Source: Blasia pusilla
Taxonomy: Eukaryota
Assembly (NCBI GenBank): GCA_050084515.1
Contig: CM114271.1
Location: forward strand, 31,868,001-31,932,000
DNA length: 64,000 bases
Direction: 5' to 3'
Shown: piece after piece, positions 13,877-58,812 of the stretch
Numbering within the stretch: position 1 is the stretch's first letter
How the letters are laid out: each line of letters starts with the position of its first letter
Program-made: the position numbers and the translations under genes
Notes under the pieces: generated by a model
The model's input: only the letters and a program-made list of their open reading frames with translations
What the model was told of the DNA's origin: nothing
Databases searched by the model: none

Positions 13877-16800
13877 TGTCGTGCGCATACACATCGCTAC
13901 ACAACCCACATTGCCGGTCACATCTACACATCACACAACACCAATCTTCCCCAATATACGGATAGATCCACACATAAACTAAATACACTCACGCATATAC
14001 ACCGAGACACCCAACAAAATCTAAGTAGTAAAAATAGCTCATCCCGCCTAAAACTCCACTCATGAAACTACTTCGACATATCAAACCACGTCCATCCTCC
14101 GCTATAAGGGAATCCGAACGCTAGCACCCTAACTTCTATACACCCACACACGTATATGCAAGAAAGGCACTCCTAAGGCTCAACATGAGAATGATGGCTT
14201 GAGAAAGCCATCTCTCTCACTCTTAACCCTTGAGAAGAGCCAAAAGGCTCTTCCCTCCAAAAAAGCCCTCGCACTGGTAACCTACGTGCACACGTTACCG
14301 GGTGACACTTGACTCGGTCAACCAGTCATATGAAGGACTAAGACCAAAATAGGGAAATCTCCATAAACAACATTTTTGCCGCAACAGACCTGTCGCCAAT
14401 CTCATATGACATCCCGGGGTCAAAGTTACACACAAACAACCCGTTGACTTTCTATGTCGTCGACGCGATAGAACTCTACCTACATCAAAAAAAGATGTGA
14501 CAACTGTCATGCGCATACACATCGCTACACAACCCACATCGCTCATCACACCTACACACCATACAACACCGATCTTCCCCAACATATAGGTAGATCCACA
14601 CATATACGAAATACACTCACGCATATACACCGAGATCCCACAACTGCCCTACTAATTTCCAGTTGGGTTCCCCTAACTCCAAATAGTAAACACATATGTA
14701 CCTAACATGATCTACCAGCCTATACACATGTAGCACCATCGGTTCCGTCATCCCCGCAACACTGCAACAAAATAGCAACCCGCAGTTTTGATCCCTCCTA
14801 AGAGATCTAACACTCTTGTACCCTGCTCCAAACATAGGCACGGCTTCACGCCTGCCTCAAGAGCTCGTCTACACTTCACGTATCTCAACGCTCGTTCCCA
14901 ACAACAATAATGAAGCTCCGCACCATGGGAAGAGTCATCCACCATGGCATGTATCTCCGTGGGACTATCCGCTAGGGGAATGTCCTCCGCATGTGTGCTC
15001 CTCTCCTCGAAACCTCCTGATAAGCTAGCAGTACCTGTGAACGTTGCCAACTTGGTTATCGTATCCTAACGTGGTCGACCACCACTACTCCCTATAAACA
15101 ACACTGGTAGATGGCTCACTCGTCCATCACCTGATCACCACCCTGGCCGATAAGAAACCGTCTCCTCCAAAAAATCCAGAATAAACCCAAGGGGATACAA
15201 CACCGTTATCCCTACCAACACATCATATGACTCTCCCGGTGTCATAATCACCTGAGTGTGCACCATTGCACTATCCGACTCATGCTGTGGCCGAAGTCTA
15301 ACCACCAACTACTGTCGAGTCATGTACTGCATGGGGGATACGCCCCCAATAGAGGATTGTATCTGAAAGAGACAACGCTCCATGTCGCCTTTCAGCAATC
15401 CCAATGCCAAACATGCCGCCTTCCATAGCATCAAGGGTCGTGCTCCCGAATCAAGTAGGACGCGTTGGGGGTGGTACATTTTACCTGTGGGACTTACCAA
15501 GCGAAACACTCCAGCTCGGTTACCCAATAACACCATACATGGTGTGATCATGGCTCGCTCTATCGCCGGCCTAGCTGGCATATCTACCAACTTCACCGTT
15601 GACGCATGCCATAACACTCAATGGGGGACGTCTTGAGCACCTACTCCGAGGGCAAGTCCACCACCTCCTCAACTACCTCTGAATGAGAAGAAGTCACCTC
15701 TCCATGCTCATTCAATGTGGCAGCCGGCCGGAACACCTCCGGTGGTCCAACTCCCAACGTCGCCAACTCTATGGCGGAAAATAATGGAGTAGGCTCACCC
15801 TAATGACTAGCTCCAACAATGTGGTCCACACTGGCTCCACCTGAGCCGTCTCAGAAGTTGTCTCTCCAACTCCTCATGACGTTGACACACTTGCCTCTCC
15901 CGTGGGTACTATCGGTCATAAAGGCACCATCGACGGTGTATGTAGTGCCTCTGATACTGTGAACAACTGGGGAACCCTGGCCTGCCGCCCATTGGTCCTC
16001 TCATGTGGATCAGTCTCAACCCCACCTCTCGATGGATCGGTTATTCTTGCAGCACCCGGAGTCACCATCGCAGTAGCCTCAACCTGAGCCGCACTACACA
16101 TAAATCCCATCCCCGCTGAATCCTCACCAACATCGTGGTAAGATGTGGAGGTTGGCGCCACACTAGCTACTCTCAACTCCACGCCTGCCTTTAGCTGCAT
16201 CATCGTCATGGTAGCAATCATTAGCTCCAACTGATCCATGCGCGTAAGGAGCGCTGCATCGGGTGCACGTTCTCCATCTCGTGTGACTAGTGATGGCACT
16301 CTTCCACCACGATCATCCACAACTCGATCTCCACCAACTCTCTCGCCCCCAAGTGCTCTACCTACCTTTGGACGTACCTCTTGGCAAAGATCAAAACACC
16401 TATCCCTAGTATGACCATATTGGTGACAATGATCACATTGCAACTGTGGTGCGGCCATCCTCTATGGCTCCTGAGCAATTGGAGGCGCCCGTGGCCCTCT
16501 CCCATGTTGTGGGCAGTCCCTCTGCCTATGTGATCCACCATACGTCCAACAAGCCAACCCTGGTCCTTTCTGGGAAACATATGTTGATATAGGTTGTTGC
16601 CTCATCGGCTCACGATACCCACCTTGCTCTCTAGGCCCACCGGCCCGCTCCCGTGGTATTGGTGCATGCTAGGGCACTTGTGGGTCTACTCCTACTTGTC
16701 GACTCGTTGAATCCTGCAAAAATCTCGTGGTCACCACTGCTCCTCACTCATGTTGAGTTCTATCCACTCAGACAACTCGAAAGATCACCTTCAATGTTGG

Positions 16801-17099
16801 TTTCGCCGTGTGAAGCAACATCGCATCCCGAATTCTCCTCCCTAGCTCCTCGTCCAACACTCTGTACCAATACTGGAATGGCTGTGCCTCAGTCATCCCA
16901 TATGTGGCAATGATCAACCGTCGCATGCACGTGAACGCTTCCCTCGGACTCTCACCCGATCTCCGTTGAAAATCCTTTAGACTCTTCAGCTTGTCGATTT
17001 TCACACCCTCGTAGCTCCTACTAAACTATTGGAAGAACTCCACTGTTGGACTGAAACTCGGTGGTCCTCTACCACGATATCCATGAATTAGATACTCAT
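13877..17099 (-). mobile_element. Internally deleted Ty3/gypsy element of the MTase-bearing group (gag, protease, MTase motif I stub, 3' B1-A2-B2 repeats)
   Basis: Gag (PPSFSPTVEFFQ, KLKSLKDFQRRSGES, CDHCHQYGHTRDRC), protease (RVLLDSGARPLML, 15309-15617) and EQGTRVLDLLGGIKT near 14790-14830 are all homologous to ORFs 57801-61623. Direct repeats at 13877-14014 and 14505-14643. Confidence 0.85.
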
Positions 17100-23430: not shown

Positions 23431-23977
23431 TATTACGAATGTTTGGATAGATCGGTGGGATCTAGCAGAGCGTCTGCACGAGTCGTGGAGGACAAGCCCA
23501 GGAGGTCGAGGATGACCTATTGAGGCCCCGGGAAACCTGAGAGACCAGGTTTCCCCTTTGTTTCGGCTCATTTGGAGCCATATAGAGAAACTTACTATTT
23601 TGGGTAAGTTTCCATGTTAGGGATTCCATACACCTCCAGAATCGCAAATCCGACAGCACTTGCGCCCATATTCATGCACACAGAAATCCGCAATTTCCAC
23701 TTTGGTAAGTGGCCCTTGACCCGCTACAATATGTCAAGAGCCAAGGAGATGACCTACGAGCATAGGTTATTGTTGAGAGGGCTTGGGGGAGGGAAGGGGG
23801 TATACTTCCAAGAGAGAGAGCTTGAGAGCTCATTCTCTCTTTGTTGAACCTCTTGGCATAAGGCGGCGGTGCTGTGGTCCCTTGCCTTGTGAGTGTAACC
23901 CAAGCCTCTGAGAGATAGCACACCTTTGAGAGCTATGGTGTGAGATGGTGTAGAGAGAGAGATTGGATCTTACTTTA
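23431..23977 (+). repeat. Terminal repeat A1 (5' end of the gypsy element)
   Basis: Colinear with 35990-36577, 52374-~52890 and 51953-52373. Similarity to the 3' copy stops at GATTGGATCTTACTTTA. Confidence 0.9.
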
Positions 23978-26823
23978 CAAAGAGAGAATGAGAGAGTGAG
24001 AGAGCTTCATGGGGGAGCTTGCTGGTCACTCATTGTTTTTTCAGGTTGCGGATCGTGTTCCCCGTTCAGCGGCTCATGGGAGTGCTCACCGGAGCAAGGG
24101 CTACTTTGATTGTTCTTTGCATTTGCCGATTTTTCGTGTGGAAGACTGGCGCGCAGAAGCGCTGCCCAATTTCTGAAAGGGATTGATTATGGGGGTAGAT
24201 TTCCCATGTTGGTGCTCTCGGGAGCACCATGTAGCTTTCTGATTTTTATTTTTATAGGTTTTACATTTTTGTTGGGAGAAATCAATGCGGAAGCGCTGCC
24301 CAATTTTGTGTAGGAGAAAGAGACATTGGGCTTTACAAAAGTCCCTGTCAGCTTTTACTCAAATATTTGATTCTAAATATTTTTTGATGGTGTTGTAGAT
24401 CATGAAGCTGTGCACGCTGTGCAACAAACAATGTGCAATTTGGATTTTGAGCCAAAAGTTATGGTCAATCTTGCAAAACTGCCATTGCTAGGAAATTTTT
24501 ACAGTGAAATTGTTCAAACCCTAAACTAGCCGCCACGCTGGCGGCCGCCGTCTCCGTTTTAGGTCAACCATCATCATCAATGGTCAATTTTCACCGTCAA
24601 CGGTCCACCGTCCATTGTCCATCCTTTGGTTGCCATTGCCGCCTTTACGGAGAGGAGGGTCTTCCACGACGTTCGTTGATTCTCTAACTTCCGTCGCCAC
24701 CACGTACTTTGTTTTGGCCACCACCGTCATCACAGTTTTGTCATCAACCAGTGATGGAAGATGACCTCCGATTATGGTGTTTGAGTTTTGATTTCATGCT
24801 GCTATGTTGTGATTGGTAGGCGCACGACGATCGAGTACTGTGCCGTGACGCCCGTAGCCGCAACGTGTCGCTGATTGCTGTGCCGTGCCGCTCATGGCCG
24901 CACTGCATCATCTCGATCGTAGAACCGCTGATTCACTAAGGAGCAGAGCGTGTGAATTTTTGGTTGAGGAGGATATGCCGTCGAGTGCCGCACCCCATTC
25001 TCTAGTGTCGTGCTGTTTGTAGTCGTTCCGTGCCCCACTAGACCGCTCGACGCGCACCGCACATCGAGGAGGTTGAGTGGCGTCAATACGAGAGGAGTAC
25101 GACTTGCTGATTGGAGGAGTTCTCTTCATGACTGAGTTGGGTCGGAATTTGCAATTGCTGAGGAGCGACATCGACATGTGTTCAGGTTACCCATTGTGGT
25201 CCTTTACCCTACACGTGTGAGGGATTATGGGATTTGGGTAGTTTATTTGGGGATATTGGGTTGTGTGGATGCTGAGAGCATCATTCATGTATGTGGTTTA
25301 GGGAACATATACATATGTGGGATGTCCGAAGTTGAGGGTAGGTTGTCGATGAGATGATAGTCTGGTCGATTTGCCGCACCACGCCGCGTGTTGTCGCACG
25401 TTACACGTCTCGGGGAGGGAGAGTGTAGATCGAGTGCCGCATGTTTGGGATGGAGAGATTGAGGGATTACTCGCGAGGTTGAGAGTGATTGGGTGAGAGG
25501 GGCACTAGGGTCGTCATGGCGTCCGTTCGGGACTTTGAGAGGCGAGGTGGTGAACCCGAGAGTAGCTCTAGAGGTTTGACGCGGAGTGGCGCGAGGTTCC
25601 GAGGGTCTCCACGTGAGGGACCACCTCAACCTCCTTGTGTGTAATCATCAGACAAGGGGAAGGATGTAGAGGAGTTTGTGAGCACATCGCCACACATTGT
25701 GAGTGGTCCTACCAGTTGGGCGTACCAGATGGACGACCAGGGTAGAGGACCGCGTAGGTTTTCAGATGCAGTAGGCACGATTGAGTTGCACGATTTCATA
25801 GCAGAGTTTAGGAGTTGGTGCAGCTCCTAGCAAACCAAGAACTCTAGAAATTTCAACCCATTTACGTATGGAACGATATGTTCGAGCATTTAGAGGGGGC
25901 GCCCATGGACGATTACCATGAGTTCTCTCAGAGATATGCACGTGAGATCGAGGCGTGGAGGCTCTACTATGACCCACATTATGTGTCATGGACGGAGCCG
26001 TTCCCAGATGAGGAGGAGGAGTCATGAGAGGTTGTTGGATAACCGAGGAGATGTCTTCCAGTTGGTGAGTCCCAGAGGTAGAGCTTTTAGTCTGCAGCGC
26101 GTCTTGTTGGATTCAAGAGCGCAACCCTTGATGTTGGGGAAAGCGTCATTCAGAGGATTGGGCTTGACAAGAGCCGATGTGGAGCGTTGTCCATTACGGA
26201 TATAGACATCCTTGGGTGGAGCAAGTATCAGACAGTATATCACCCGACAGGAGGTCGTGGTGAGGATTCGCCCGGGACATCCTATAGATGAGTCCGTGGT
26301 GCGAGCCAAGGCGATAGTGATTGATGCAGAGTCCTACGACGTCTTGGTTGGTGGAGCAATGTTATACCCCATGGGGTTTTCCCTAGAATACTGGGAGGAG
26401 TCAACGTCCTACAGACAAAGATGGCAGTCAGGTGATGGGTGCCTTAGCTCATTACCCGTTTGATTCACATGTGCAGTGATCGAGCGACGGCCAGGAGAGG
26501 TGGCGGCCTTAGCAGCAATTTGGAGTGCCATCACTTGGCCTAGTGATTTGATTGAGGGACATGTCCATGCAGAGGATACTCCCGTTCCTGACATTTCTAT
26601 GGAGAGGAGTGTTATGGTAGCCGCATCATTCCGTGGAGGAGAGGTGCCGTTGTGGGGCTTGACTGAGGAGCTTCGACGTTTGGCAGATGAGCATGTGCAG
26701 ACCGCGTGGAGCGAGGCGCTTGCACCCGAGCGTGACGGGTCTGAGGAACCTGAGGTAGCATGGAGTGCTACGATGACATCCTTGAATACCACACCCATTG
26801 TGTGGTGTATCCCGGAGGAGGAT

Positions 26824-27745
26824 ATTCGAGTGTTAGATCTCTTTGGAGGGATTAGCACCGGGTTAGCTGTTGTTTTGCAGGCAGGAGTGCGAGTGCAGCG
26901 GTACTTGTATGTGGAGAGTGATGATGTTGCAAGGCGCGTCTCACTACGATATGTGGCGCAGTTACGCCTATGTTTTTCCAACTTATTGTTTGCGTCCGCG
27001 GTACAAGGGTACCAGAGTTCCCTACCGAGGGATATTTCATTGCTGGGGGCGCAAGACTGAGAGCGGGTAGGGACCATTGATTTGGTCATTTCCGGTTGGC
27101 CATGCCAAGGCCAATTGAGTGTTGGACAAGGCACTGGGTTGGCTGATACTCGGTCCAAGTTGTTTTGGGAGATGTTGAGGGTCTTACGGCAGTTGTAGGA
27201 GCACCAATCTCGTTCTCTAGCCTACATTCTGGAAAATTTGCCGATCTTAGGAGTCTCCAAGTCAAGGGTGGTGAGGTGCGTGCCTGGATCAACCCAGAAG
27301 TGTTTTTGGATGTGGCGAGTGTAGGTTCTAGAGCCCATCGCCCGCGTCTATGGTGGACCAACTTGGTGCCCCATGCGGTATTATAGAGGGCATATGCGAG
27401 AGTGGATCGCCCCTCCCATTCGTTAGTGGATTCCATTCTGGATCCATGTCATCGATCACAGGCAGTGAGGCACGATGATCGACCATCGTTGATTGTGGCC
27501 AACAGGGTAGGTAGGCCGCGGGCAGCCTTGCCCACGTTTGTGAGTTTTTCCGCTTCCTATGCATACAAGGAGGCCATTCCTGGCTTGGTTTGGGATGACC
27601 AGGTTCATCAGTTGGTAGAGCCCAATGCCGACGAGAGAGAGCGAGCGATGGGATTTCCCATAGGAGTGACGACAGTACCGTTAGTGTCAGAGGCATCATG
27701 ACGCCATGTCTTGGGTCAGGCGATGGACCTGAACTGCTTGACATG
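26824..27745 (+). pseudogene. DNMT3-like C5 cytosine DNA methyltransferase domain inside gypsy pol (copy 1; stops and a frameshift)
   Basis: Motif I IRVLDLFGGISTG; motif II YLYVESD; motif IV DLVISGWPCQG (CCATGC at 27100); motif VI YILENL; motif VIII AHRPRLWWTNL; motif IX ERERAMGFP; motif X RHVLGQAMD. Confidence 0.9.
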
Positions 27746-29860
27746 GATCCTCAGCTTAGGAGTGGCTGAGCAGCGCCGTATGAGGTCGCGATAGATCACA
27801 GCGGTTGCGTTGGTGAGCCCCATGCCTACCGGGACGATGGAGGCAATGGCTGGGGGCAAGACCGGAGGAGATCTACACACCAAGGGAGATTGGGAGAGAC
27901 ACCCTTGGACTTCTTGGGATGTTTTGCAGGTACGCCAAGAGATGATAGCCACAATATCGAGCGTAGTTCCGGGCACTGCACATGGAGGAGATCAGAGTTT
28001 GCAGTTGGCTGCAAGAGAGCGGCCGAGTGTTGTTGTTCGAGACGGGGTTGCACCATAGCAACCACCGATACCCGCGCCAGAGAGTCCTATCGTAGTCACG
28101 ATGGAGACTTGGGAGCCAGATATGGGCCCTAATTGACAGGAGGAGAGCAGCGCCGGATATATTAGTTCCTCAGGAAATACAGGAGCTGCTTTGAGTTTTG
28201 CATGGAGGATTTGGGTATGCTGAAGGGACCGGGGATCCGCAATGAGTTGTCGAGTGATACGCCGATGTTTCGATGACCCTACAAGTATAGTGAAATGGAG
28301 AGGGATTTGATTTAGAGTAGGAGCCAGGACTAGTGGAGATGTCGCATGGGGAGTACGCGTGTGCCACTATCATGCCCGCCAAGAAGGATGTGCATGGCAA
28401 CTGGACGCATAGGCGGATGTGTGGGGATTACCGACCTATCAATCGGCACACGAAGTCGGATAGGTATGCCATGCCCACCCTTGAGGAGATCTTTGAGGCA
28501 ATTGGTCACGCAAAGGTCTTCAGTTCATTGGATTTGCAAGCCGGATACCATCAGTTGCCTATCAGATTGGAGAACAAGCGAGAAGACGGCATTTTGGGAC
28601 ATCGATCCTCACTTGAAGGATTGTTTGTACTAGTGGCGGTTCTTACCATTTGGGTTAAAGAACACCCCAACTGAGTTTCAGAGGGTCACGGATAGGATCT
28701 TGGCTGGGCTGGATTTTACTAGGTGTTATATTGATGACATCGTAGTCTTTAGCGCCACGGTTGAGGAGCATGAGCAACATCTAGAGGAGATGATTTGACG
28801 ATTGTAATAATATGGGCTGAAGCTACATCCAGGCAAGTGAAAGTTCTTCTACGACCAGATTGAGTACTTGGGTCATACGATATACCCAGGGGGCCTTGGT
28901 GTTCAACAGACAAAGGTAGAGGCTATCTCACGCATTCCACGCCCTACACATGTGACTCGTGTTCGCGCATTCATGGGATTGGCACATTTCTATCGGCGGT
29001 ATGTCAAGGGATTCAATTCGATTGCGAAGCTGCTAACCTTGCTGACCAAGGTGGATCACGAGTGGCACTGGGAGGATGAGCAGAAGCGAGCATTTTAGTT
29101 GCTCAAGGGCAGATTGTCGTCCGCGCCCATCTTGAGGAGATCGATCAGGGGGCGTCCTTTCCAGTTGCACACAGATTAGAGCATGTTGGGACTTGGAGCG
29201 GTGCTCACCCAACATGATGATGAGGGTAGAGAGTTCGTGGTGACTTATGCTAGCCGCTCGAACAACGCTACAGAGGCAAAGTACAGCTCGCATGAGGGTC
29301 AGTGCTTGGTTGTAGTGTGGGCTGTTGCGCATTTTAGGTGTTACTTATTCGGCAACCCCTTTACCATCATCACTGATCATCAACCATTGAAGTGGTTGAT
29401 GGAGTCCGAGAATCATACAGGGAAGCTTGCGAGATGGGCTCTGTTGTTGAAGGAGTATGATTTTCACGTGGTGCATAGACCTGGGACACTCAATCAAGAT
29501 GTAGATGGGTTGAGTCGTAATCCATGCCCTAGTCACCGAGATGGGACTGGAGCTCGATGGTATGGAGAGAGTGATGAGGAGTCAGTGCCAGGATGGCATG
29601 CGTCAGCCTATTTAGGCATGTTGGCTATGGAGAGCTAGAGTGTGGAGACTTTGATGGCGAGGTCTAGTGGAGAGTCCTTGGATCCCGAGGCGAGTGAGGA
29701 GACGACATGTGGCCGAGATATTCATGATGATGGAGTAGTCTTGTAGTACCTTTGTACAGGTAGCGTTGCGAGACCCGTGGGTACTAGAGAGCGGGATCGG
29801 ATCCTACAGCGGGCCAGACGGTTCCGTTGCGAGGGGACATATGTTTTGAGGGTTTGGGAG

Positions 29861-32800
29861 GTAAATGGTAAATGGTAAATAGATCAAGCCCGTGGGACCC
29901 AAAGGGTCAAAAGGCTGAAAAACACATTACAAGTCATTCATTGACGACTGAAAAAAGATCCTTAAGACCTTCTCCTAGCTCTGACCTAGAGCACTTGAGC
30001 GATGAATGATGACGTCCCTAATATAACAACCTAAATCATAGGCACTAGCTGTAGTAAAGAATAGAAATTCTCCACATCTATTTTATGAGCTAGTCTTATT
30101 TCTCCATACCTTGGACATGTAACAAACATATGCTCTTCATCCTCAATATTTTCTCCGTCACATAACCTACAAATTCGTTCACTTCTATCAATTTTAAACC
30201 ATCGTCCTTCCTCAATTCCTAGCCTATGAGACCCAGTTCTATGACGTGCGATAATATATCGTAAGAACGTGGAGATCCTTGCAAGTAGGTATCCTTGTTC
30301 ACAATATACAAGCATAGGATTAACATGAAGTTGATAAAACTCCATTTTGGTGCCCGCACTGCTCCAAATGATGTTGAGAGATTGCTTCAGTAGATGCTCA
30401 CGGAGGGCCATCAGTTTCAAGTCCCAATCGCGTTCTGCCACATTCCACTTTGAAGACCAAGTCACCACATCCTCCATCCACCCTATGGAACGTGTGGCTC
30501 GCAAAGCTTGATGAGGGAGGCGAGAAACATCAAGAGATCTCACTCTTTACTTGATCAAGTGATGGTCAAGTAAAGAGCTTCAGCTTCTAGAGGAAGAAAA
30601 CCTGTTTCCGCAAGAAGAATAGCATACGGAGTTTGGTTTCTTACACCCAATTCTTCTTGTAGAAAGATCTTTTGCACTCTTTCCACGCGCTCCCAACCTG
30701 TCTTCTTACAACTAGGGCCCCAAACTTGGGTCCCATATAAGACCACCGGCAACACTAAGCTCCTAAATAAGAATTTCCTAAGACTCCAAGACACAAGATG
30801 AGCTCTTCTACACCGGTTTAAAAATGAATATAGAGCTTTGTAACCAGCTTCTACTCTCTTTTGCACGTAAAGTGCCCAACTATAGTCATGAGACAAATCA
30901 ATGCCTAGATGTTTGTAACTCTTCACTTGTTCTAATTGTAGACCTTTGTAAAAGAACGAGAACTTGGATCTAGTACCCACTATAATGACTTTAGACTTCT
31001 CCATATTAACCTCCATCTGATTGTGGGTACAAAACCTTGCCAAAGTGTCGAGGTGCTTTTGTAAACTAATGTCATCAGGTGCTAGTAATATGATATCATC
31101 TGCATACAATAGAGCTTTGATGACAAAGTCCCCAAGCTTGACCCCTTCACTATTACATTCCTCCAACCACTTTTCGATATCATCTATGAAAACTCCAAAG
31201 AGTGTAGGGGACAGAGGGCAACCTTGAATGACTCCAATGGTGCTCAAGATCTCTTGAGTTTGTGAACTTTGATCTTGGCCCGAACGGAATGGTATAACGT
31301 GGCCACGGCTGCTAGGAGATTTTGTGGAACTCCAATGGCCTTTCCCATAAGAGCTTGCGAGGTACAGTATCAAAAGCTTTCTTGAAATCGATGAAGCCGC
31401 AAAACAAAGCTTTTCCATTGCCCTTAGATTTCTCCCATAAAACACGCAAGGCCAAGATATGATCGATGGTGTTGTATGTTGGACGAAAACCAGCTTGGAC
31501 CCGTGCTCTCTTTTGGAAAGACTCTGTCCATGTGCTCAACTTCGACTCCACCAATTTCCCAAACAACTTGGCAAAAACACTACCCACCATGATAGTGCGA
31601 TAGTTTGTTACCAAGTCCTTCCTTCCTGATTTATGAATAGGGACAATCTCCGTAGCGACCAGGATGAAGGAAAACCATAGATAGCAGCATCACCCAATAA
31701 TTTGGTGAGGATCGGTCCAATACAATCTCCTCCCCACTTGAAAAGTTCAATAGAAAGACCATCCAAATCCTCACATTTACCATTCGCCAATCTTCTTAGT
31801 TGAGTCATCACCTCTCCTTCAGAGAATAAGCCACGTATTCCTTCACAACGTGGCATAGACGTAGCATCGGGGAAGAAATAGAGCTTTTCGGCAAAAGATA
31901 TCAAAGACTTGGGATCAAGAATAGGTTTTGAAGACCGTACTACTAACCGTCTCCAAAATGATTTGGGGTCCTCATGCACTCCTTGTCAAGGACTCTTGTT
32001 TTCGCCAAGCAAGAAAGCTCGTTTTTCGATTTCACCAAGTATTTGTAAAGGCTCGTCATAATAAGCCGACTTGGGATATCCAAAGATTTATCACTGCTCG
32101 TGCCCTTGCTTGCTTGCATTGAGTCAAACCACCCATTACAAGGCGACCTCCTAGCACTTCTATCCCTGTGGCGCGAAAAAGAACTTAAATGCACTTTGTT
32201 TTTGAGCAATTCCGTTAGTTGCATACTTGCCGTGTTTGGATCAGGGCTCCATACAATGCGAGTCAAGTGTTCTTGTAAATGTAGCATATAAAGATCTTTT
32301 TACCAGGATCTAAGCGAAACTTGGGAGAAGCTAAAATAGATTGACATGTCGAGAGAGGAATTTCCTTTGACAAAGTGAGAGAGTAAACAAGAGAGGTGCA
32401 TGATCCGATTCAGTGAGGTTCTAGAATATCAAATGTAGAGATAAGAGAGCTATCGTGAGGCGAGGGACAGAAGATAATCGATGGTGCTAGCGCCGGTAGA
32501 GGAGAAACACATATTGGAGTGAGAGTTGGGAAAATGAGAGGTTCCATTAAGAACTTTCAAATTACAAGTGGCTCCAAAGGTTAAAAAAATACTCTGTCAA
32601 AGGATTTGTAGAAAGATCTCAAGAGATTCTAGACCATAAACCATCCTCATATTCTTGAGAAGAGGAGAAATCAAGGAATCACTGAATTGGGTAAATTGAG
32701 CAAGATGCGTGTGCGAGCATTGAAATCTCCAACTAGAAAGACTTCACCTTTGCTTTGATATTTGAGAACATCCCCAATAAGTCGATGGAACGGTTGACTT

Positions 32801-34522
32801 CGATTGTGAGTGCGTGTTGAGTAGATAGGCATGGAGAGTGGTGTAAAATAACAAAGCGCCAAATAACAATAAGATCCCGAACCAAACCAAGACGTAGCCA
32901 ATGATATTGACCCCGATATCTTGATCTTCTAGATGAATGAGAGGTAGAAATTGAGACTGATGAAAGTAGCAATACCGCCATAACCCCTTCTGCCCGTTGC
33001 CTTCTCGATTCCATGTCGATCCTACCAAAGTAAACCCTTGCATCTCTGCAATAGTATTGCTCTCATGTTCCCAAGTCTCCACAATATTAATAATATCTGC
33101 CATCTCCCAAATTGGTAGAGCACTCACATACTTTGCTGTTGAAAGGCCTCGTATATTCCACATCAACACTCTCAGCTTCTTGGATTGCTAGGTTGATAAC
33201 TCTCTTTTTCTCTTGGTAACAATTGCTCGCCCATCTCGTAGATAAGCAATAAAACCTGCTTCTTGAGCCTCTTTGACCTTTGCAAGCTCCTTTCTCCTAG
33301 CTTCGACTTGTAGAGGTGTGAGATCAGGATCCAACCATATCCTCCGTCCTTTGAGAATGGCCTTGTTAGCCATGGCGAGATCACGTTGAGTTTGATCAAC
33401 AAACTTGACTACAATGGCACGAGGTTGTGTGCCCGTTTTCCCAATACGAAAAGCTTGAGCCAAGTCCGGGTTATGAACATGAAGTGTATCAACCAAGAAC
33501 TTAGTGACAACACTCTTCACCTCTTCGCTCTCTGTTTCCGGTAAACCTGAGATTCTCACATTCTTTCTACGGGCAAATTGGTTTTCTTTTTCTATCTCTT
33601 GCTCTTGTGAGAAAGAGATATGAGCAACCTTGTAGCTTCAAAGATAAGATTTCATTTTCACTTCTAAAGTTTCAACAACCTCATGCAATCCTAAACTATT
33701 GGGAGTAGTCACCAAGGATGATGCCTTCTCTTGAACATCCGCAACAGATTTGGAAAGATCCAGCATCACACTAGAACTATCTTTCAACACTTTCTTCAGA
33801 ACCTCTTGCGTTGCCTTCAACTCTCGGATTTGAATATGTGCATGGTTTAATTGAAAATTTTGTACCTTGAATTCTTGTCGAAGCTCTTTCACTTCATGCA
33901 AGACCACTTGCACTAGATTCAAGATTTCGTCTTGAGTGGTCATCCTGTAGTCGACTTCACTGCATCCCAGAAAGTATAATTGAATCTCCAACACCACACA
34001 ACTTCTGCTCTAGAAGTTGGTTGTACTTGAAATTTCTAGGATTAAGACGCCTCTAGAAATTTCACGTTGAGTCCAAATCTCAGCTTCATATGACACTCCA
34101 CCTCAAAGTTATGGCCTCAGCAAGATTCAGATCTGAAATGCTCAAATCTAGAAGTGCAGAAACTCAAATCTTTCACAACTTCGTATATATAACTCGGTTG
34201 TGCTTGCAAATCTGAGAGCTAGGGAGCCTCTTTATACTTCACGTTGCCTCCAAATCTTAGCTTCATATGACACTCCACGTCAACGTTATGGCCTCGGCAA
34301 GATTCAGATCTGAAATGCTCAAATCTAGAAGTGCAGAAACTCAAATCTCTCACAACTTCGTGTGTATAACTTGGTTGTGCTTGCAAATCTGAGAGCTAGG
34401 GAGCCTCTTTATACTCCACGTTTCCTCCAAATCTCAGCTTCATATGACACTCCACCTCAAAGTTATTGTCTCGGCAAGATTCAGATCTGAAATGCTCAAA
34501 TCTAGAAGTGCAGAAACTCAAA
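29861..34522 (-). mobile_element. Near full-length non-LTR retrotransposon (LINE, RTEX-like), inserted antisense in the gypsy integrase
   Basis: ORF1 ~33943-33188 has a coiled coil and RISGLPE...FRIGK...PRAIVVKF...IWLDPDLT (RRM/Tnp22-like). ORF2 has an APE endonuclease (WNIRGL, VETW, GDFNAR), RT (NYRTI, QAGFR, FIDFKKAFD, GVIQGCPLSPTLF, LLYADD) and a C-terminal CRLC...EDEEH...C finger. 3' tail (ATTTACC)n. Several frameshifts. LINE identity is firm; the clade name is tentative. Confidence 0.9.
34061..34522 (-). repeat. 177-bp tandem repeat (about 2.6 units) forming the LINE 5' UTR
   Basis: CTTCATATGACACTCCAC starts at 34084, 34261 and 34438 (period 177). Units are near identical. Confidence 0.92.
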
Positions 34523-35873
34523 AATGGCAGAGGATGCATAGTGCCACATCCTTCATAGAGAGCACGACTAGTGCAGCATGCCCATGAGGAGTTGGGTCAC
34601 TTTGGGATGAAGCGGATGTACAACTTGCTCTTGATGCAATATTGGTGGCGAGGCATGCAGATTGACGTTCAACATTTTGTTGCCAAGTGCATGGTGTGTG
34701 ATCGGGTTTGAGCATCGTTCAATGCTCTGACTCCACAGTTGCATCCATTAACGATCATGGGCATAGGGTATATATGAATTTTGGATTTTGTAGCACCTTT
34801 GCCTTTGACGGAGCGTCAGAGTCGTTATGTGTTGGTGATGGTCGAGACTTCTCATAGTGGATCGAGTTGGTTGCATTGCCTAACAAAGCGAGTGAGGGAG
34901 TAGCTTATGCCTTCCTTGACAGAGTGTTGAGTCATTATGGTGCACCGGCTGAGGTATTGACAAACGAGGGTACCGAGTTTCGTGGTGAGTTCCAAACCTT
35001 GTGTTATTAGGCGCTGATCGACCACCACACGACTTCGCGAGATCATCCTGAGACAGATGGATTAGCCGAGAGAGTTATGCAGACGGTGAAAAGGGGTTTA
35101 CGCAAATATGGCTTGAAGAGAGATCACCTAGGAGATTGGGACCTCCAGTTGCCGTGGTTGGCGATGGGATACAGATTCAGCAGGCAAGCATCCTTAGCGT
35201 CTTTTTCACCGTACTTGCTACTTTATGGCCGAGAGCCAGATTTACATGCGGCCATTCGTCGAGATGCTGAAGAGGTGTTGGACCTTGATGACCCAAATGT
35301 ATGGATGCGAGCATGTTCTCAAAGGGCTGAGTTGTTTCGGAGAGTGATGCCCATGGCGTTCGAGAACTTGGTGATTGTGCAGCATTGGGATACGTTGAGG
35401 TACGCGACTATTCGGGATGGTGGTTATCGACCAACTGTCCGGAGGTTTCATTAGGGAGGTTATGTGTACTTGCAGCAGACGACACCGACGACGTTGGATG
35501 TGACTGCAGGGCGCACTATCCTGAGAGTGCGTGACGTTTTTCCATCTGGTGTTCTCTTCCTGGAGGGACGCGATGGTATGGTATGGAAGGACCATGTGCG
35601 TAATTGTGCGCCATGTTACCTTCCTAACATTGATGGTACAATAGATCCGAGCTTAGTAGTAGTTCCTACAGGCTTTGGCGTTGTATGTTGTGTGGTTTTG
35701 CTCGTGGTGGATCTGCTCGTGGTGTGACATGGATGACAGGAAGGCGACTAACGATGGGGCCACATGAGCACGCGACCTTTCTGCTCTTAGCATCATAGAG
35801 ATGTATGTCGTGGTAGGTAGGGATAAATGACTATCAGGAGTAAGAGGGACCTTACCACCAACTAGGGGGCGAT

Positions 35874-36704
35874 TGTAGATATTTTGGTACTTCTCACCTC
35901 TATGTATGGATGCCATGAGTAAGCATGGGATCGTGTGTGTTCGATAACAACAATGTATGTTGTGTAGCGATGTGTATGCGCTCGACAACTGTCACGACTG
36001 TTATGATAGATCGGTGGGATCTAGCATAGCGTCTGCACGAGTAGTGGAGGACAGGCCCAAGAGGTCGAGGATGACTTGTTGAGGCCCCACGAAACCTGAG
36101 AGAGTAAGTTTCCCCTTCGTTTTGGCTCATTTGGAGCCATATATAGAGACTTACTATATCGGGTAAGTTTCCATATTGGAGATAGTTGACTTTCCACTTT
36201 GGGAAGTGGCGCTTGAGCTCTCAAGCTCTCTCTACTTGAGGTATACCCCCTTCCCTCTCCCAAGTCCTCTCAATGGTAACCTATGCTCGCAGGTCATCTC
36301 CTTGGCTCTTGGGAGATGACCTGCGAGCATAGAGAGGGTTACCGTCGAGAGGGCTTGGGAGAGGGAAGGGGGTATACCTCCCACAGAGAGAGCTTGAGAG
36401 CTCATTCTCTCTTTGTTGAACCTCTTGGCACAAGGCGGAGGAGCTATGGTCCCTTGCCTTGTGAGTGTAACCTAAGCCTCTCATTAGGAGAGTTGGTTTG
36501 GTTTGACATGAGAGAGAGTGCACACCTTTGAGAGCTATGGTGTGAGATGGTGTAGAGAGAGATTGGTTCTTACTTTATTGGAGATATTTTGGTACTTCTC
36601 GCCTCTGTGTATGGATGCCATGAGTTAGCATGGGATTGTGTGTGTTTGTGTGTGTGTTCGATGATAGCGATGTATGTTGTGTAGGGATGTGTATGCGCAC
36701 GACA
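35874..36704 (+). repeat. 3' terminal block B1 (35874-35987) - AC - A2 (35990-36577) - B2 (36578-36704)
   Basis: B1 and B2 both read AGATATTTTGGTACTTCTC...GATGTGTATGCGC(T/A)CGACA. A2 matches A1. Confidence 0.9.
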
Positions 36705-50560: not shown

Positions 50561-51703
50561 AAGATAAGTCACACTACACATAACCTTGGGAACCACCCTC
50601 AAATTGAATAAAATATAAAGAAGAATACAATAAAAAATGAAAAGAATGCTTTTTTATTTCTCAACTTCCAAAATGAACATCAAAATTTTTGGACAACATT
50701 TTATATGTTACTTCCTAAAAGAATAGGAAGGCATGTCAATTTCAAAAGCCTTGGTGCGTCCTCCACATTCCGTATGTGTTTGTAGAGATTGATGAGGCAA
50801 TGGCTGCTTCTTTATCTAGTTGGGCTTGTGGGCCCAACTTTGTCTTTATGGATTTTTCTTTGGGGAATCAAAAAGGTAGGTTGATGAATGAGTTGTTTGG
50901 GTTTTGTGTATCATTCACGTGTGTTATGGATCCTGCTGATCTTCTTCTACGTCGCGATCAACATTCAATGTTTGATTGAACTCGTGTAATGGAATTATTG
51001 TTGAAGAATCCATTTTGAAAAGTGGAAAATGGATTCCTTGGTTGAGGGGTCAACCCATTATCGACCACTATTTTGGCAGACTTTATCCTTTCATTAAGCT
51101 TCTTGAGAGCTCCTGTAGTCAAAGTAAGAAGGCGAGAATTCTCAACACATGACAGTCCTGTACTTAAGAACAAGTTGTTGATTTCTTTGATACTAGAGTT
51201 AGTTACAAGGTTGGAAGTGTCTAAGGATATTTCACTTCCTTGTGGAATGGGCGTCTTGGAGGCCAACACCAAAGATGGAAAATAATTAGTTTTGAAGGAG
51301 CAACAACTTATATATATGAAACTTAAGGTTGAAATATGAGTCCTATGATAACCCTAGAAGTATACATGACTTGATGTTCTATTTTTATTTATCTTCATTT
51401 GCATGTTTGTAAATAGTGTTAGCTTGGTTTGGATCATTCTCCAATTCCTCATTGGATTGTTGCCTTATGAACTTGAGATGAGCCATCCCGCCATGTCTTA
51501 TTCCTAACCTTGTTCCTAAAATCTTTACCAAATCTGCTTCATTGTAATTTTCCTCCAATAAGGCAAGAATGCGTATGCCCATTTTTAAATCGAAAAAGGT
51601 AGTATAATACCTCTTCAATACATATGGAAACTACTATGGAACATTTTGTTTCAAAAGAATGAGAATACAAGAATGTAAGAGGCCTTTACAATATGCTTGC
51701 ATA

Positions 51704-51952
51704 TGTCACATCTTTTAGAATAGATAGGCGAGTTCTAGTAGAGCGCCTTCAGAGATACTGAAGGACAACCTCAAGAGGTCAAGGATGACTTGTTGAGGCC
51801 ACGGGTAACTTGCGAGAGCATGTTTTCCCTTCGTTTCGGCTCATTTGGGAGCCATATTGAGGAACTTACTATTTTGGGTTAGTTACTATTTTTGGTAAAG
51901 TTGACTTTCCACTTTGGGAAGTGGCCCTTGACCCACTACAACTGGTCAAGAG
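51704..51952 (+). mobile_element. 5' part of an A repeat of another family member, interrupted at 51953
   Basis: Starts TGTCACA and is colinear with the first ~250 bp of A. Breaks at GTCAAGAG, where a new A copy begins. Confidence 0.8.
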
Positions 51953-54900
51953 TATCATGACTTTCAGGATAGATCGACAAGATCTAGTAGAGCGCCTTCA
52001 GAGATATTGGAGGACAACCTTAGGAGGTCGAGGATGACCTATTGAGGCCACAAGTAACTCGAGAGAACAGGGTAAGTTTCCATTTAGAGTATAGTTGAAT
52101 TTCCACTTTGGGAAGTGGCCCTTGACCTGCTACAACACGTCAAGAGCCAAGGAGATGACCTGCGAGCAGAGGTTAACGAGGACATGGCTTGGGAGAGGGA
52201 AAGGAGTATACCTCCAATTGAGCTCATTCTCTCTTTGTTGAACCTCTTACCACGAGGCGGCGGAACTATAGTCCCTTGCCTTGTGAGTGTAACCAAAACC
52301 TCTCATTAGGAGAGTGGGTTTGGTTTGACATTTGAGAGAGACATGTGAGAGTGCACATATGTGAGAGCTATGGTGTCACGTCTTTTAGGATAGATCGGTA
52401 AGATCTAGTAGAGCGCCTTCGCGAGTAGTAGAGGACAAGGTCAAGAGGCCGAGGATGACGTGCTGAGGCTCCGGGAAACTTGAGAGAGCAGGTTTTCCTT
52501 TCGTTTCGGCTCATTTGGAGCCATATTGAGGAACTTACTATTTTAGGCAAGTACCATTTTAAGTATATGGTCAACTTTCTATTTTTTGGAAGTGGCCCTT
52601 GACCTCCTACATCAGGTCAAGAGCCAAGGAGGTGACTTGGGAGCATAGGTTACCATGGAGAGAGCTTGGGAGAAGGGAGGGGTATACCTCGAAGAGAGAG
52701 AGCTTGAGAGCCCATTCTTTCTTTGTTGAACCTCTTAGCATGAGGCGGTGGAGCTATGGTCTTGCTTGCCTTGTGTGTGTAACCCAAGCCTCTCATTAGG
52801 ATAGTGGGTTTGGTTTGACATTTAGAGAGACATGTGAGAGTGCACACATTTGAGAGCTATGGTGTTGAGAGAGATTGGATCTTGATTTATTCGAGATATT
52901 TTGGAACTGCTCGTCTCGTTGTTTGGATGCCATGAGTTAGCATGGGATCGTGCATGTTTGTGTGTGTGTTTGGTGACACCGATGAATGTTGTGTAGCGAT
53001 GTGTATGCGCACAACAATGGTGTTGTAAGGGAGATTTGATCTTATTTAACAAAGAGAGAATGAGAGGTTGAGAGAGCTTCAATGGAGAAGCTCGCCAGTT
53101 ACTCGCTATTGGTGCAGGTTGGGGATCGTGTTCCCCATTCAGCGGCTCATGGGAGTGCTCATCGAAGCAAGCGCTACTTGTTTTTTTGTTTTCCATTGCC
53201 AATTTTTTGTGTGGAAGAATGGCGTGCGGAAGCACTACCCAAATTTCTTTAGAGATGAAGTTTGGGGGCGGATTTCCCCATGCCAATGCTCTCGGGAGCA
53301 CCAAGTAGCTCAATAGTTTGTGAATTTTACATGTCTGAAGTTTTGTGTGGAAGAAATTAGCACGGAAGCGCTGCCGATTTTGTCCTAGGAGTGCAAATTT
53401 GAAGACTGCATGACACTTCTCGTCAGTTTTTGTGGGAAAGTTGAATGAAAAAAATTAGACAACATCATAGATCTCAAAGTTGTGCACGTTGTGGAAGAAA
53501 TGGTGCGCAATTCTAAGCTGCGAGCAAAAATTTATGGTTGATCTTGCAAAATTGCCATTGCTAGGCAATTTTTAGGGTTAAATTGTTCAAACCCTAAACC
53601 AACCTCCGCGTGGGCGCCGGCGGCGTCTGTCACCATCACCATCATCGTCAACGCTCCGCAGTCAATCGTCAACCGTCACTATCAAATATCCTCCGTCAAC
53701 GGTGCACCGTCACCGTCACCGATCCACCGCCGCCATCATCGTAGTTTCGTCATCAACCAGTGATGGTAGATGACCTCAAGTTGACGGTTTTTTGAGTTTT
53801 CATTTCATTCTGCTATATTGTGATTGGTAGTCGCTCGACAATGATCGAGTACCATGCCGTGACGCCCGTAGCCGCAATACGCCGCTCGTGGCCACACTGC
53901 ACTGTCTCGATCGCGGCCGCTCCTTCACTTAGGTGTAGAGCGTGTGTATTGCTAATTGAGGAGGATATGATGCGGAGTGCCGCATCCCATTGTCGAGTGT
54001 CATGCTGTTTTGTAGCCATTCGGTGCCGCCAGCACCGCACCGTGCCACTGGATCCGCACCGCATAATGAGGAGATTTGAGCATCGTCAATAGCATAGGGG
54101 TACGACTTACTGATTGGAGGATTTTGTTGTCCCGACTGAGTTGGGGTCAAGGTTTGCAGTTGCTAAGGAGCAATCGACATTTGTTCAGGTTACCAATTCT
54201 GGTCTTTTTCCTATACGTGTCAGGGAATTCCGGGTATTGGGTAGTTATTTGGGATATTGGGTTTCATGCAGATGCTAAGAACATCGTTGATGCATGGGTT
54301 TAGGGCACATAGACCTGTGTGGGGTGTCCAGAGTTGAGGGTATGTGCTCTTCATGAGATGATAGGATAGTAGTTGATTTGTCGCACCACGCCGTTTGTTG
54401 CCGCACAACAAACTTCTCAGTGAGAGAGACCGTAGATTGAGTGCCGCATGTTATATTGCACCATAGCAACCACCAACACTTGCGCCGGAGAGTCCTTCAA
54501 TAATCATGATGGAGACTTGCGAGCCAGATATGGGCCCTAAGTTGACAGGAGGAGAGCGGCGCCGGATACATCAGTTCCTCAGGAGTTATAGGAATTATTT
54601 TGTATTTAGCATGAATGATTTGGGTACATTGAAGGATCCAACCATCCACATTGAGTTGTCGAGCGACACGCCGATCTTCTGATGACCCTACAGGTACAGT
54701 GACATGGAGAGGGCTCTGATTCAGAGTAGGAGCCAAGACTTGGTTGGAGTAGGACTAGTGGAGATGTCACATGGAGAGTATGCATCTGCCACTATCATGC
54801 CCGCCAAGAAGGATATGCATGGCAACTGGATAGATAGGCGGATGTGTGGAGATTATTGACCTATCAATCAGCAGACGAAGTCCGATAGGTATGTTATGCC

Positions 54901-56871
54901 CATCCGTGAGGAGATCTTTGATACTATTGGGTATGCAAAGGTCTTCACTTTGCTAGATCTTTGAGTTGGATACCATCAAGTGCCTATTAGATTGGAGGAC
55001 ATGTAGAAGACGGCATTTTGGGGCATCGATCCTCACGGGAAGGATTATTTGTACCAGTGGCGGTTCTTACCATTTGTGTTAAAGAATGCCCCGGATGAGT
55101 TTCACAGGGTTATGGTTAGGATCTTGACAGGTCTAGATTTTGCTAGGTGTTATATTAATGACATCGTAGTCTTTAGTGCCACGGTTGAGGAGCATGAGCA
55201 ACATCTAGAGGATGTATTTTGACGATTGCAATTACATGGGCTCAAGCTACATCCAGGCAAGTGAAAGTTCTTCTATGACTAGATTGAGTACTTGGGTCAT
55301 ATGATATATCTAGGTGGCCTTGGTGTGCAGTAGACAAAGGTGGAGGCTATTTTACACATTCCACGCCCTAAAAATGTGAGTCGAGTTTGTGCATTCATGG
55401 GATTTGCAAACTTTTATCGACAGTACATCAAGGGTTTCAATTCGATTGCAAAGCACCAAGATGGATCAGGAGTGGCACTGGGGGGATGAGCAGAAGATAG
55501 CATTTCAGCTGCTCAAGGACAGATTGATGTCCACGCCTATATTGAGGTGATCGATAGGGGGCGTCCTTTCCAATTATATACGGATTGGAGCATGTTGGGG
55601 CTTGGAGCCGTGCTCACCCAGCATGACGATGATGATAGAGAGTTCGTGGTGGCTTACACTAATCGCCCGAAAAACGTTGTAGAGGCAAAGTATAGGTCGT
55701 ATGAGGGTGAGTGCTTGGCTATAGTGTGGGCTGTCGCACATTTCAAGTGTTATCTATTTGGCAACCTCTTTACCATTATTACTGATCATCAGCCACTTAA
55801 ATGGTTGTGGAGTCCGACAAGCTTACAGGGAAGCTTGCCATGTGGGCTCTGTTGTTGCACGAGTATGATTTACAGGTGGTGCATAGACCTGGGATGATTA
55901 GCCATGATGCATATGGTTTGAGCCGTTATCCATGCCCGAATCAGCGATATGTGACTGGAGCTCGTTGGCATGGTGAGAGTGATGAGGAGTTGATGTCAGG
56001 ATGGCACGCGTCAGCCTAGTTGGGCTTGTTGGCTATGGAGAGCCAGATTGATGAGACTTCGATGGCGAAGTCTGATGGAGAGTCCTTAGATCCAGAGGCC
56101 GGAGAGGAGACGATAGATGGCCGAGATATTCATGACGATGGAGTAGTTTTGGAATACTTTTGTATTGGTAGGGTTGCGAGCACAGTGGGCGCTAGAGTGC
56201 GGGATGGAATCCTACCGCAAGCCAGATGGTTCCGGTGGGAGGGGACACATGTGTTGCAAACTTGGGAGGATGATACAGTACATGTAATGCCTCATCCTTC
56301 AGAGAGAGCGCGTTTGGTGCGTCATGCCTACGAGGAGTTAGATCACTTTGGAGTGAACCGGACGTACGTCTTGCTCCACATACAATATTGGTGGCGAGGC
56401 ATGCAGACTGACGTTCAGTAGTTTGTTGCCAGGTGTATGGTTTGTGATCGGGTCTAGGCATCGTTCAATGCTCCAACTCCACAGTTGCATCCACTTTCGA
56501 TCATGAGTTTAGGTTATAGATGAAGTTTGGATTTTGCAGAACCTTGACCTTTGACAGAGTGCCATAGTTGTTATGTGTTCGTGATGGTCGAGCACTTCTT
56601 GAAGTGGATAGAGTTGGTTGCATTGACTGACAAAGAAAATGAGGGAGTAGCGTATGCATTCCTAGATTGAGTGTTGGGTCATTACGGCACACCAGCTGAG
56701 GTGTTGACAGACTGGGGTATAGAGTTTGGGTACATAGTTCCAGGCCCTATATGATGAGGAGCTGATCGACCACCTTACCACTTCGTGAGATCATCCTGAG
56801 GAAGATGGACTAGCGGAGAGGATTGCGGAGACGGTGAAGAGAGGATTACCCAAGTATGGCTTGTAGAGAGG
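51953..56871 (+). mobile_element. Gypsy element of the same family as 23431-36704, with gag-protease-MTase deleted; interrupted at 52374 and 56872
   Basis: A1 (TATCATG start) joins directly to the internal leader 53050-54455, which is homologous to 23980-25445. It then jumps to sequence homologous to 28048 onward (RT, RNase H, integrase up to TVKRGL). Confidence 0.88.
52374..53016 (+). mobile_element. Solo A-B terminal unit (solo-LTR equivalent), 643 bp
   Basis: TGTCACG...GCGCACAACA, colinear with 35990-36704. Flanked by a 4-bp TSD ATGG (52370-52373 / 53017-53020). Confidence 0.9.
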
Positions 56872-58412: not shown

Positions 58413-58812
58413 GTAAATGGTAAATGGTAAATAGATCAAGCCCGTGGGACCCAAAGGGTCAAAAGGCTGAAAAACAAATTACAAGTCATTCATTCACTGA
58501 CCCTGAAAAAGATCCTTAAGACCTTCTCCTAGCTACAGCCTAGAGCACTTGAGCGATGAATGATGACGTCCCTAAGATAACAACATAAATCATAAGGCAC
58601 TAGTTGTAGTAAAGAATAGAAATTCTCCACATCTATTTTATGAGCTAGTCTAATTTCTTCATACCTCGGACATGTAACAAACACATGCTCTTCATCTTCA
58701 ATATTTTCTCCGGCACATAACCTACAAATTCGTTCACTTCTATCAATTTTAAACCATAGTCCTTCCTCAATTCCTAGCCTATGTGACCCAGCTCTATGAG
58801 GTGCGATAATAT
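58413..58812 (-). mobile_element. 5'-truncated 400-bp copy of the LINE inserted in gag
   Basis: Near identical to 29861-30258, including the (ATTTACC)n tail. TATG is duplicated at 58409-58412 / 58812-58815. Removing the insert restores gag ...RRVRDATL-M-SDDSPTL. Confidence 0.93.

Follow-up and report, generated by a model that had tools for sequence, protein, structure and literature searches.

Hosts defend themselves against transposons chiefly by cytosine methylation, and given this defence a transposon that carries its own DNA methyltransferase (DNMT) presents a paradox. This question is raised by a 64,000-nucleotide stretch of DNA from Blasia pusilla (contig CM114271.1, positions 31,868,001 to 31,932,000; hereafter the window), in which positions 26824-27745 of the plus strand hold a DNMT3-type C5 cytosine DNA methyltransferase (MTase) domain, located inside a Ty3/gypsy long terminal repeat (LTR) retrotransposon that we term copy A. 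Self-comparison of the window, Pfam scans and tblastn with homologous proteins revealed four related Ty3/gypsy elements, copies A, B, C and D, of which copy C holds a second MTase domain (60814-61660, plus strand, located by tblastn and motif reading). Taken on its own copy A is an ordinary pseudogene and adds little. Using copy C and a wider set of relatives we conclude that the domain is of DNMT3 type and was under selection in the past, a joint claim to which we give a probability of about 90%.

The identity of the copy A domain follows from a match to the Pfam family PF00145 (DNA_methylase), from its identity to homologues and from six motifs. In C5 MTases motif I (FxGxG) binds S-adenosylmethionine, motif IV contains a PC pair with the catalytic cysteine and motif VI is ENV. 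In copy A motif I reads DLFGGIS (26836-26856), motif IV GWPCQG (27094-27111) and motif VI ILENLP (27226-27243), followed by motif VIII as GSRAHRPRLWWTN (27324-27362), motif IX as EPNADERERAMGFP (27618-27659) and motif X as LGQAMD (27711-27728). Motifs VIII, IX and X are all there and the order I-IV-VI-VIII-IX-X is unrearranged. PF00145, which has a curated cut-off of 22 bits, matches a 45-residue open piece of the domain (27061-27195) with an E-value of 3.9e-7 and 30.2 bits, and it scores 27-43 bits on homologues of the MTase. Four in-frame stops (TGA at 27058, TAG at 27196, TAG at 27384 and TGA at 27699) and a frameshift near 27273-27282 interrupt the domain; in the alignment to copy C the damage spans 27058-27701 on the plus strand, and the copy C codons opposite the four stops are CTT, CAG, CGT and CGA. 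Over all codons that can be aligned to copy C, copy A has 16 stops. The stops at 27196 (CAG to TAG) and 27699 (CGA to TGA) are single C-to-T changes relative to the copy C codons, and in the MTase regions of both copies the observed to expected ratio of CpG is 0.73-0.76, with TpG plus CpA in excess (1.23-1.35). Together the C-to-T stops and the CpG deficit match what deamination of methylated cytosines in silenced copies would leave behind.

In copy C the domain belongs to a 605-codon open frame (59806-61620, plus strand) that takes in the last part of gag, the protease, and as much of the MTase as precedes a deletion, and on which PF00145 scores 21.3 bits (E 2.1e-4), slightly below the cut-off. 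Motif I is DLFGGIS, motif IV is GWPCHG (PCH, 61084-61101), motif VI is ILEKVP (EKV, 61216-61233) and motif X has LSQ for LGQ (61620-61637). The catalytic Cys and the Glu of ENV are kept, with changes in the residues beside them. Motif IX is gone in a deletion of about 94 nucleotides, accompanied by a change of frame, at about 61590; the segment corresponds to positions 27588-27683 of copy A. To place these residues we counted them by column in an alignment of 47 varied members of the family, every one of which has the catalytic Cys and the Glu of ENV. The Gln of PCQ is found in 43 of the 47 and His in none, the Asn of ENV in 41 and Lys in none, and the Gly of the motif X LGQ in 43 of 45 members, while the residues of motifs VIII and IX are nearly invariant. 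The position before the catalytic Cys is divided between Glu (21 of 47) and Pro (24 of 47).

A preliminary description of this locus had held that every catalytic motif is kept at the same position of pol in two divergent copies with different terminal repeats, and that motifs IX and X survive in copy A and are partly deleted near 61590 in copy C. Much of this was borne out. The segment missing from copy C and its change of frame are as described, both MTase domains lie between the protease and the reverse transcriptase (RT), and the copies are divergent, with 64% nucleotide identity over the domain. The two 24-mers quoted there were located at 26838-26861 and 60828-60851; two differences separate them, both at third positions of codons. 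For copy A the statement about the motifs holds for their sequences, motifs IX and X included, and fails for the reading frame with its four stops and frameshift, motif IX being separated from motif X by one of the stops (27699). It is not true of copy C, where PCH, EKV and LSQ replace PCQ, ENV and LGQ and motif IX is deleted. The difference in terminal repeats stands for the 5′ side, where no similarity was found between the 2 kb upstream of copy C (leader and LTR) and the LTR regions of copies A or B; the 3′ LTR of copy C lies beyond the window.

The closest database proteins were 31 matches, gene models of Marchantia polymorpha, Calypogeia fissa and Sphagnum, the best being 79% identical to copy C. 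These bryophyte models join a CCHC gag, a protease and the MTase, and some continue into RT and RNase H. The MTase of copy C is 73-79% identical to the bryophyte homologues; that of copy A shares 61-64% identity with every one of them and with copy C, and therefore represents an outlying lineage. When the homologue P0001 was compared with the sequences of solved structures DNMT3A was the best match (E 6e-12), followed by DNMT3B, DNMT3C, plant DRM and bacterial enzymes. P0001 is a natural intact protein, 79% identical to copy C, and its AlphaFold model from a 47-sequence alignment had a predicted local distance difference test (pLDDT) score of 92 and a predicted template modelling (pTM) score of 0.90; a model from a shallow alignment of 10 sequences had a pLDDT of 43.5 and was discarded. 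In a Foldseek search with the P0001 model the matches listed were all DNMT3A, 3B or 3C, with E-values down to 6e-19 and target template modelling scores of 0.80-0.85 for catalytic-domain chains. The predicted fold, which is that of the homologue P0001 and not of the window copies, is closest to DNMT3.

The presence of two divergent copies raised the question of whether the domain had been maintained by selection. Codon pairs between copies A and C were taken from tblastn segments (open frames of copy C against copy A), stops and gaps were dropped, and the ratio of nonsynonymous to synonymous substitution (dN/dS) was calculated by the Nei-Gojobori method. Over 277 codons of the MTase the proportions of differing synonymous (pS) and nonsynonymous (pN) sites were 0.697 and 0.238, giving a dN/dS of about 0.14 (uncorrected pN/pS 0.34, bootstrap 95% range 0.28-0.42). 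Over 316 codons of RT and RNase H the values were 0.638 and 0.153, with a dN/dS of 0.12 (uncorrected 0.24), and the linker before the MTase gave 0.38. Nucleotide identity in the MTase is 0.46 at third positions and 0.74 at first and second positions, and the proteins are 62% identical. Reading the same aligned bases in the two wrong frames gave ratios of 0.76 and 1.57, and the signal of a low ratio is therefore tied to the reading frame. The divergence between A and C is in part neutral decay, and selection acted on the active lineage rather than on these copies. As both copies have gathered neutral changes since insertion, the estimate for the active lineage is if anything too high. During the active phase of the lineages leading to A and C, the MTase was most probably held by purifying selection of about the same strength as RT and RNase H. 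The view in the preliminary description that the MTase is an old, selected part of the lineage is thus upheld: relative to RT the ratio is similar and not near 1, the wrong frames lack the signal, relatives with the same domain order occur in several bryophytes, and the MTase is better conserved than the leader, since for the leader and LTR of copy C no alignment with those of A or B could be made.

We extended this comparison to 80 related loci from metagenome contigs, which were scanned with the family alignment. Because only two of these loci have an uninterrupted MTase domain, pairwise dN/dS was binned by divergence over all 82 copies (the 80 loci, A and C; 3215 pairs). The median for the MTase was 0.91 at dS below 0.05, 0.88 at 0.05-0.1 and 0.66 at 0.1-0.2, and fell further to 0.57 at 0.2-0.4, 0.47 at 0.4-0.7, 0.21 at 0.7-1.2 and 0.17 above 1.2. 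For RT and RNase H (939 pairs) it was 0.35 at dS 0.2-0.4 and 0.15 above 0.7. A ratio that falls with depth is the pattern expected of neutral decay after insertion combined with purifying selection on both domains in the active lineage.

The domain is not confined to bryophyte elements. A profile search of 1.84 billion representative proteins returned 5266 matches at E<=1e-3. With E<=1e-10 their number was 1367, and with E<=1e-30 it was 365, the last figure counting clusters at 50% identity; many of the matches are polyproteins of 1000-3400 residues. Among 269 profile-matching proteins RT precedes the MTase in 99, the MTase precedes RT in 14, and 156 have no RT. The architecture with RT first runs RT, RNase H, MTase, integrase and PHD, and is found in gene models of Scenedesmus, Haematococcus, Chromochloris and Cymbomonas. 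The green-algal proteins P0041, P0048, P0064, P0140 and others have the MTase between RNase H and integrase together with a C-terminal PHD finger, and one has a Tudor domain. We built a FastTree phylogeny of 85 rows, which included no host DNMT3 from plants and is read as unrooted, with Shimodaira-Hasegawa-like (SH-like) support only. All 43 rows with RT before the MTase form one clade (SH-like 99), and all 13 rows with the MTase before RT, copy C among them, lie outside it; copy C belongs to a 12-row clade of bryophyte type (SH-like 100). The tree does not settle the number of MTase captures in the wider family. No Klebsormidium relative was listed when searched by name in word-limited database searches, which is weak evidence.

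Downstream of the MTase the gag-protease-MTase frame of copy A ends in an in-frame TAG (28056-28058, plus strand; context TAG-CAA-CCA), which alignment shows to be conserved as TAG-CAA-CCA in copy B (54464-54466, plus strand) and as TAG-CAG-CCA in copy C (61911-61913, plus strand), where the RT leader goes on in the same frame. Six gene models in the database end at this stop, and it occupies the identical codon in 56 of the 57 related loci that hold the post-stop peptide. In 53 of those 56 the next codons are CAA-CCN (35 after TAG, 18 after TAA), and in three more the CAA has become TAA. Where the conserved stop reads TAA, the copies are decayed ones. The sequence CAR-YYA is the tobamovirus-type context of a leaky stop, and we take the CAA or CAG and CCN codons found here to be comparable to it. 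The conserved TAG-CAA-CCN looks like a programmed leaky stop, that is, a readthrough site. In gammaretroviral gag-pol, where UAG is read through (PMC5009743), an in-frame UAG likewise separates the upstream and downstream parts of the polyprotein, although there the stop follows gag alone and here it comes after the protease and MTase.

To see expression we mapped three RNA-seq runs, labelled with the species of the best-matching DNA data, to positions 51500-64000 at a likeness of at least 90%. Over the bins of the copy C MTase (60674-61924) the depth was 42-82 with the first mate on the minus strand and 0-5 in the other orientation, a bias that would mean sense RNA if the library were of the usual stranded kind; the library type is not on record. 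Reads at least 99% alike numbered 45 of 3783, 29 of 3993 and 45 of 4109 in the three runs, and the RNA therefore comes from related copies. At the deletion in copy C 33-52 reads in each listed row extend from both sides into sequence that this copy lacks, such rows being listed for every run on the right of the break and for two runs on its left, and by our reading the ends of these reads encode family residues flanking the missing segment. Transcribed relatives carry the sequence that is deleted in copy C.

From these elements a working model can be drawn. The first frame consists of gag, protease and the DNMT3-like MTase, and ends at the conserved TAG followed by CAA-CCN. RT, RNase H and integrase lie in the same frame past the stop and would most likely be reached by stop-codon readthrough. 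If the stop is leaky, the MTase would form the tail of the gag-protease product, the abundant one, rather than of the RT-integrase extension, which is rarer, and the protease may release it from the first polyprotein. Once inserted, each copy decayed neutrally. As to its function, we suggest tentatively, and at less than even odds, that the enzyme may be a de novo DNA cytosine methyltransferase acting on the element's new cDNA or on the integration site, the role proposed for known retrotransposon DNMTs (PMC5890265). The invariant catalytic residues argue for catalysis.

Several points weigh against our interpretation. Copies A and C are both pseudogenes and neither can be active, as an uninterrupted MTase reading frame is lacking in A (four stops, frameshift) and in C (deletion with frame change). 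Most of the family is dead as well: beyond the two intact loci of 80, in the 71 copies (69 loci, A and C) for which at least 280 of the 316 domain codons could be mapped, the in-frame stops per MTase domain number between 0 and 9 (median 4). The pS of 0.70 between A and C is near saturation and makes the corrected ratio imprecise, and the dN/dS numbers are descriptive only, because the alignment was guided by protein and the pooled pairs are not independent. The expression data stem from related copies, in a library whose strandedness is not on record, and readthrough is deduced from the sequence context alone. Finally, a Gypsy DNMT3 domain has been assayed in print only once: the domain of Klebsormidium nitens was tested in yeast, no methylation resulted, and the authors of PMC5890265 regarded the outcome as inconclusive.

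This last result would also be in keeping with a domain that is conserved without methylating the DNA of the element, and that instead methylates RNA or serves as a non-catalytic chromatin or DNA-binding tether for targeting. In the same direction, EC takes the place of PC before the catalytic Cys in about half of the wider family. We regard such a role as unlikely, since the catalytic Cys and the Glu of ENV are universal in the family alignment and the residues of motifs VIII and IX nearly so, as expected of an active enzyme, and since the fold and the nearest sequences are those of the DNA enzymes DNMT3A, 3B and 3C and not of DNMT2. If the domain were instead neutral baggage, a captured host fragment drifting unselected, its conserved look would come from young copies; the dN/dS of about 0.9 in near-identical pairs and the stops that fill most copies are what this would predict. 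Copies A and C, however, are saturated at synonymous sites and still 62% identical in protein, with third positions far less alike than first and second. With depth dN/dS drops to about 0.2, as it does in RT, and the domain occurs in bryophytes and green algae alike. The out-of-frame controls argue against an alignment artefact in the deep pairs. The deep-pair ratios and frame controls contradict unselected drift, and we rejected it as highly improbable.

The two remaining alternatives concern the origin of the domain. Recurrent capture of DNMTs by retrotransposons is documented (PMC5890265) and our tree leaves the number of captures in the wider family unsettled, so copies A and C might each have taken their MTase from a host DNMT3 gene. 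In both copies, though, the domain sits at the same position between the protease and the same conserved stop, and the homology of A and C extends through the flanking linkers. By similarity both belong with the bryophyte gag-protease-MTase group, in which the clade of copy C is strongly supported. The shared position and homologous linkers led us to discard independent capture by these two copies, for which we see very little chance. Some Marchantia gene models of the MTase family are annotated as ordinary proteins, which would suit a domesticated host DNMT3 gene rather than part of a transposable element. Against this, protease, RT, RNase H, integrase and LTRs lie around the MTase, which is interrupted by stops and is repeated in the window and in the 80 loci; a host gene is thus extremely unlikely and was also rejected. 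A DNMT3-type MTase that was selected as part of a retrotransposon remains the reading that we prefer.

The element around the domain, copy A (about 23435-36704), is very likely an old, dead Ty3/gypsy LTR retrotransposon of a bryophyte-type genome. Its direct LTR regions, 23435-23977 on the 5′ side and 35994-36704 on the 3′ side (both plus strand, found by self-comparison), are only 80-88% alike, which is why we consider it old; the 5′ region matches 35994-36577 in pieces. Between them lie protease, MTase, RT, RNase H and integrase. The Pfam domains RVT_1, RT_RNaseH and Integrase_H2C2 occur in that order in copies A and C, as in Ty3/gypsy elements with their gypsy-type RNase H and integrase zinc domain, and the protease was recognised by homology. 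In copy A the protease region (26032-26460, plus strand), located by tblastn of homologue P0011 and of the copy C frame, reads DSR at its DSG motif and has two in-frame stops (26203 and 26461). The decayed RT and RNase H (28321-29860, plus strand; RVT_1 E 1.1e-10, RT_RNaseH E 8.7e-32) have six stops among the 316 codons aligned to copy C. The element is split by an insertion of the non-LTR type with an RT of its own (29861-34524, minus strand; RVT_1 E 2.8e-16 on 30558-31535 minus), the far end of which (33997-34522) consists of tandem repeats of about 177 bases that are 83-89% alike. Copy A resumes at 34520-34539 and keeps an integrase remnant (34559-35122, plus strand; Integrase_H2C2 E 1.2e-15) that matches 56285-56870 of copy B.

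Copy C (about 57765 to beyond 64000) starts with gag at 57765-58408 (plus strand), a 192-residue open frame in which residues 1-40 of P0011 match 58299-58418. The gag is broken by an insertion of 403 bases (58409-58811, no strand assigned) that is 94% identical to 29860-30259, an end of the 4.7-kb element with a minus-strand RT by which copy A is split; the insertion is probably this non-LTR element in truncated form. Related copies skip it, joining 58408 to 58812, in 28, 1 and 41 reads of the three RNA runs and in three DNA contigs, and the insertion is therefore specific to copy C or to few copies. RT, RNase H and the start of integrase occupy 62171-64000 (plus strand; RVT_1 E 8.6e-10, RT_RNaseH E 1e-30, Integrase_H2C2 E 1.4e-9) and continue past the window end, with frame changes and a stop in the RT and RNase H region.

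Copy B (51704-56870, plus strand) is a relative of A with 76-82% identity to it and is without exactly the part of A at 25446-28047, which holds the protease and MTase. The junction at 54452-54456 is clean, and the deletion ends a few bases short of the conserved stop at 54464. The LTR region of copy B (52334-53167) contains internal duplications, and nowhere in the mapped stretch is the RNA depth higher (56-141). Copy D (14952-16926, minus strand; tblastn of P0011 residues 1-571) belongs to this family too, but is a fragment with gag and protease and without any of the MTase. Near it, 101-864 and 13823-13076 form an inverted pair with 78.5% identity.

Taken more broadly, MTase-bearing Ty3/gypsy elements could form an ancient family spanning the green lineage, with two architectures and with a bryophyte branch that is still transcribed and in which the MTase ends an abundant gag-protease product before a programmed leaky stop. 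We advance this wider view with caution, as a possibility that falls short of an even chance. If it is true, the element could deliver far more methyltransferase than reverse transcriptase, and the many copies in the model liverwort Marchantia would make the role of a transposon-borne DNMT genetically testable. The arrangement is common in bryophytes, a genetic model species included, and in green algae, and its wide spread, the RT-like selection, the transcribed relatives and the position of the MTase before a conserved stop together ease an experimental approach to the question of function. Our search of a limited set of papers, which included the main text of the 2018 paper discussed below, found no account of the bryophyte elements, the two architectures or the conserved stop. 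Passages of PMC5784723, PMC6453930, PMC10952607 and PMC9940879 have nothing on transposon-borne DNMTs in bryophytes, while 'streptophytes (Gypsy-DNMT3)' are mentioned in a passage of the preprint 10.64898/2026.05.21.726589 and a DNMT3 'embedded within retrotransposon structures' in one of PMC12344493.

How does this MTase compare with those already described? Going by the text of de Mendoza et al. 2018 (PMC5890265), a gypsy element bearing an MTase is a rare arrangement but one already known, and its nearest described counterpart is KnitGypsy-Dnmt3, from the charophyte Klebsormidium nitens, a gypsy element with a DNMT3-related MTase. Both are of Ty3/gypsy type in a streptophyte host, with a non-rearranged, DNMT3-related MTase inside the polyprotein and key residues conserved, and both show purifying selection, with a reported ratio of nonsynonymous to synonymous rates (Ka/Ks) below 0.2 there and about 0.14-0.2 in deep pairs here. 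In contrast, by the published text the repeats of KnitGypsy-Dnmt3 are arranged as in DIRS elements, whereas copy A has ordinary direct LTRs; its acquisition is placed by that text 'in the K. nitens lineage'; and here the MTase lies in a gag-protease-MTase frame upstream of a conserved stop. The same source describes SymbioDIRS-Dnmt3 and SymbioLINE-DNMT of Symbiodinium, C5 MTases that are likewise carried by retrotransposons and under purifying selection, the DIRS one methylating CG de novo in yeast; these differ in element class (DIRS, and LINE, the long interspersed nuclear elements) and in their dinoflagellate hosts. The gypsy polyproteins of green algae, such as 'pol' of Scenedesmus sp. PABB004, have an MTase of the same family (profile E 1e-50 to 1e-110) with conserved catalytic motifs, but place it after RNase H and not before RT, add a C-terminal PHD finger and form a separate clade (43 rows). 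The catalytic domains of mammalian DNMT3A, 3B and 3C are the best matches in sequence and fold and share the unrearranged order I-IV-VI-VIII-IX-X, yet they are only about 20-23% identical, and the MTase described here is without PWWP or ADD domains and is embedded in the polyprotein of a retroelement.

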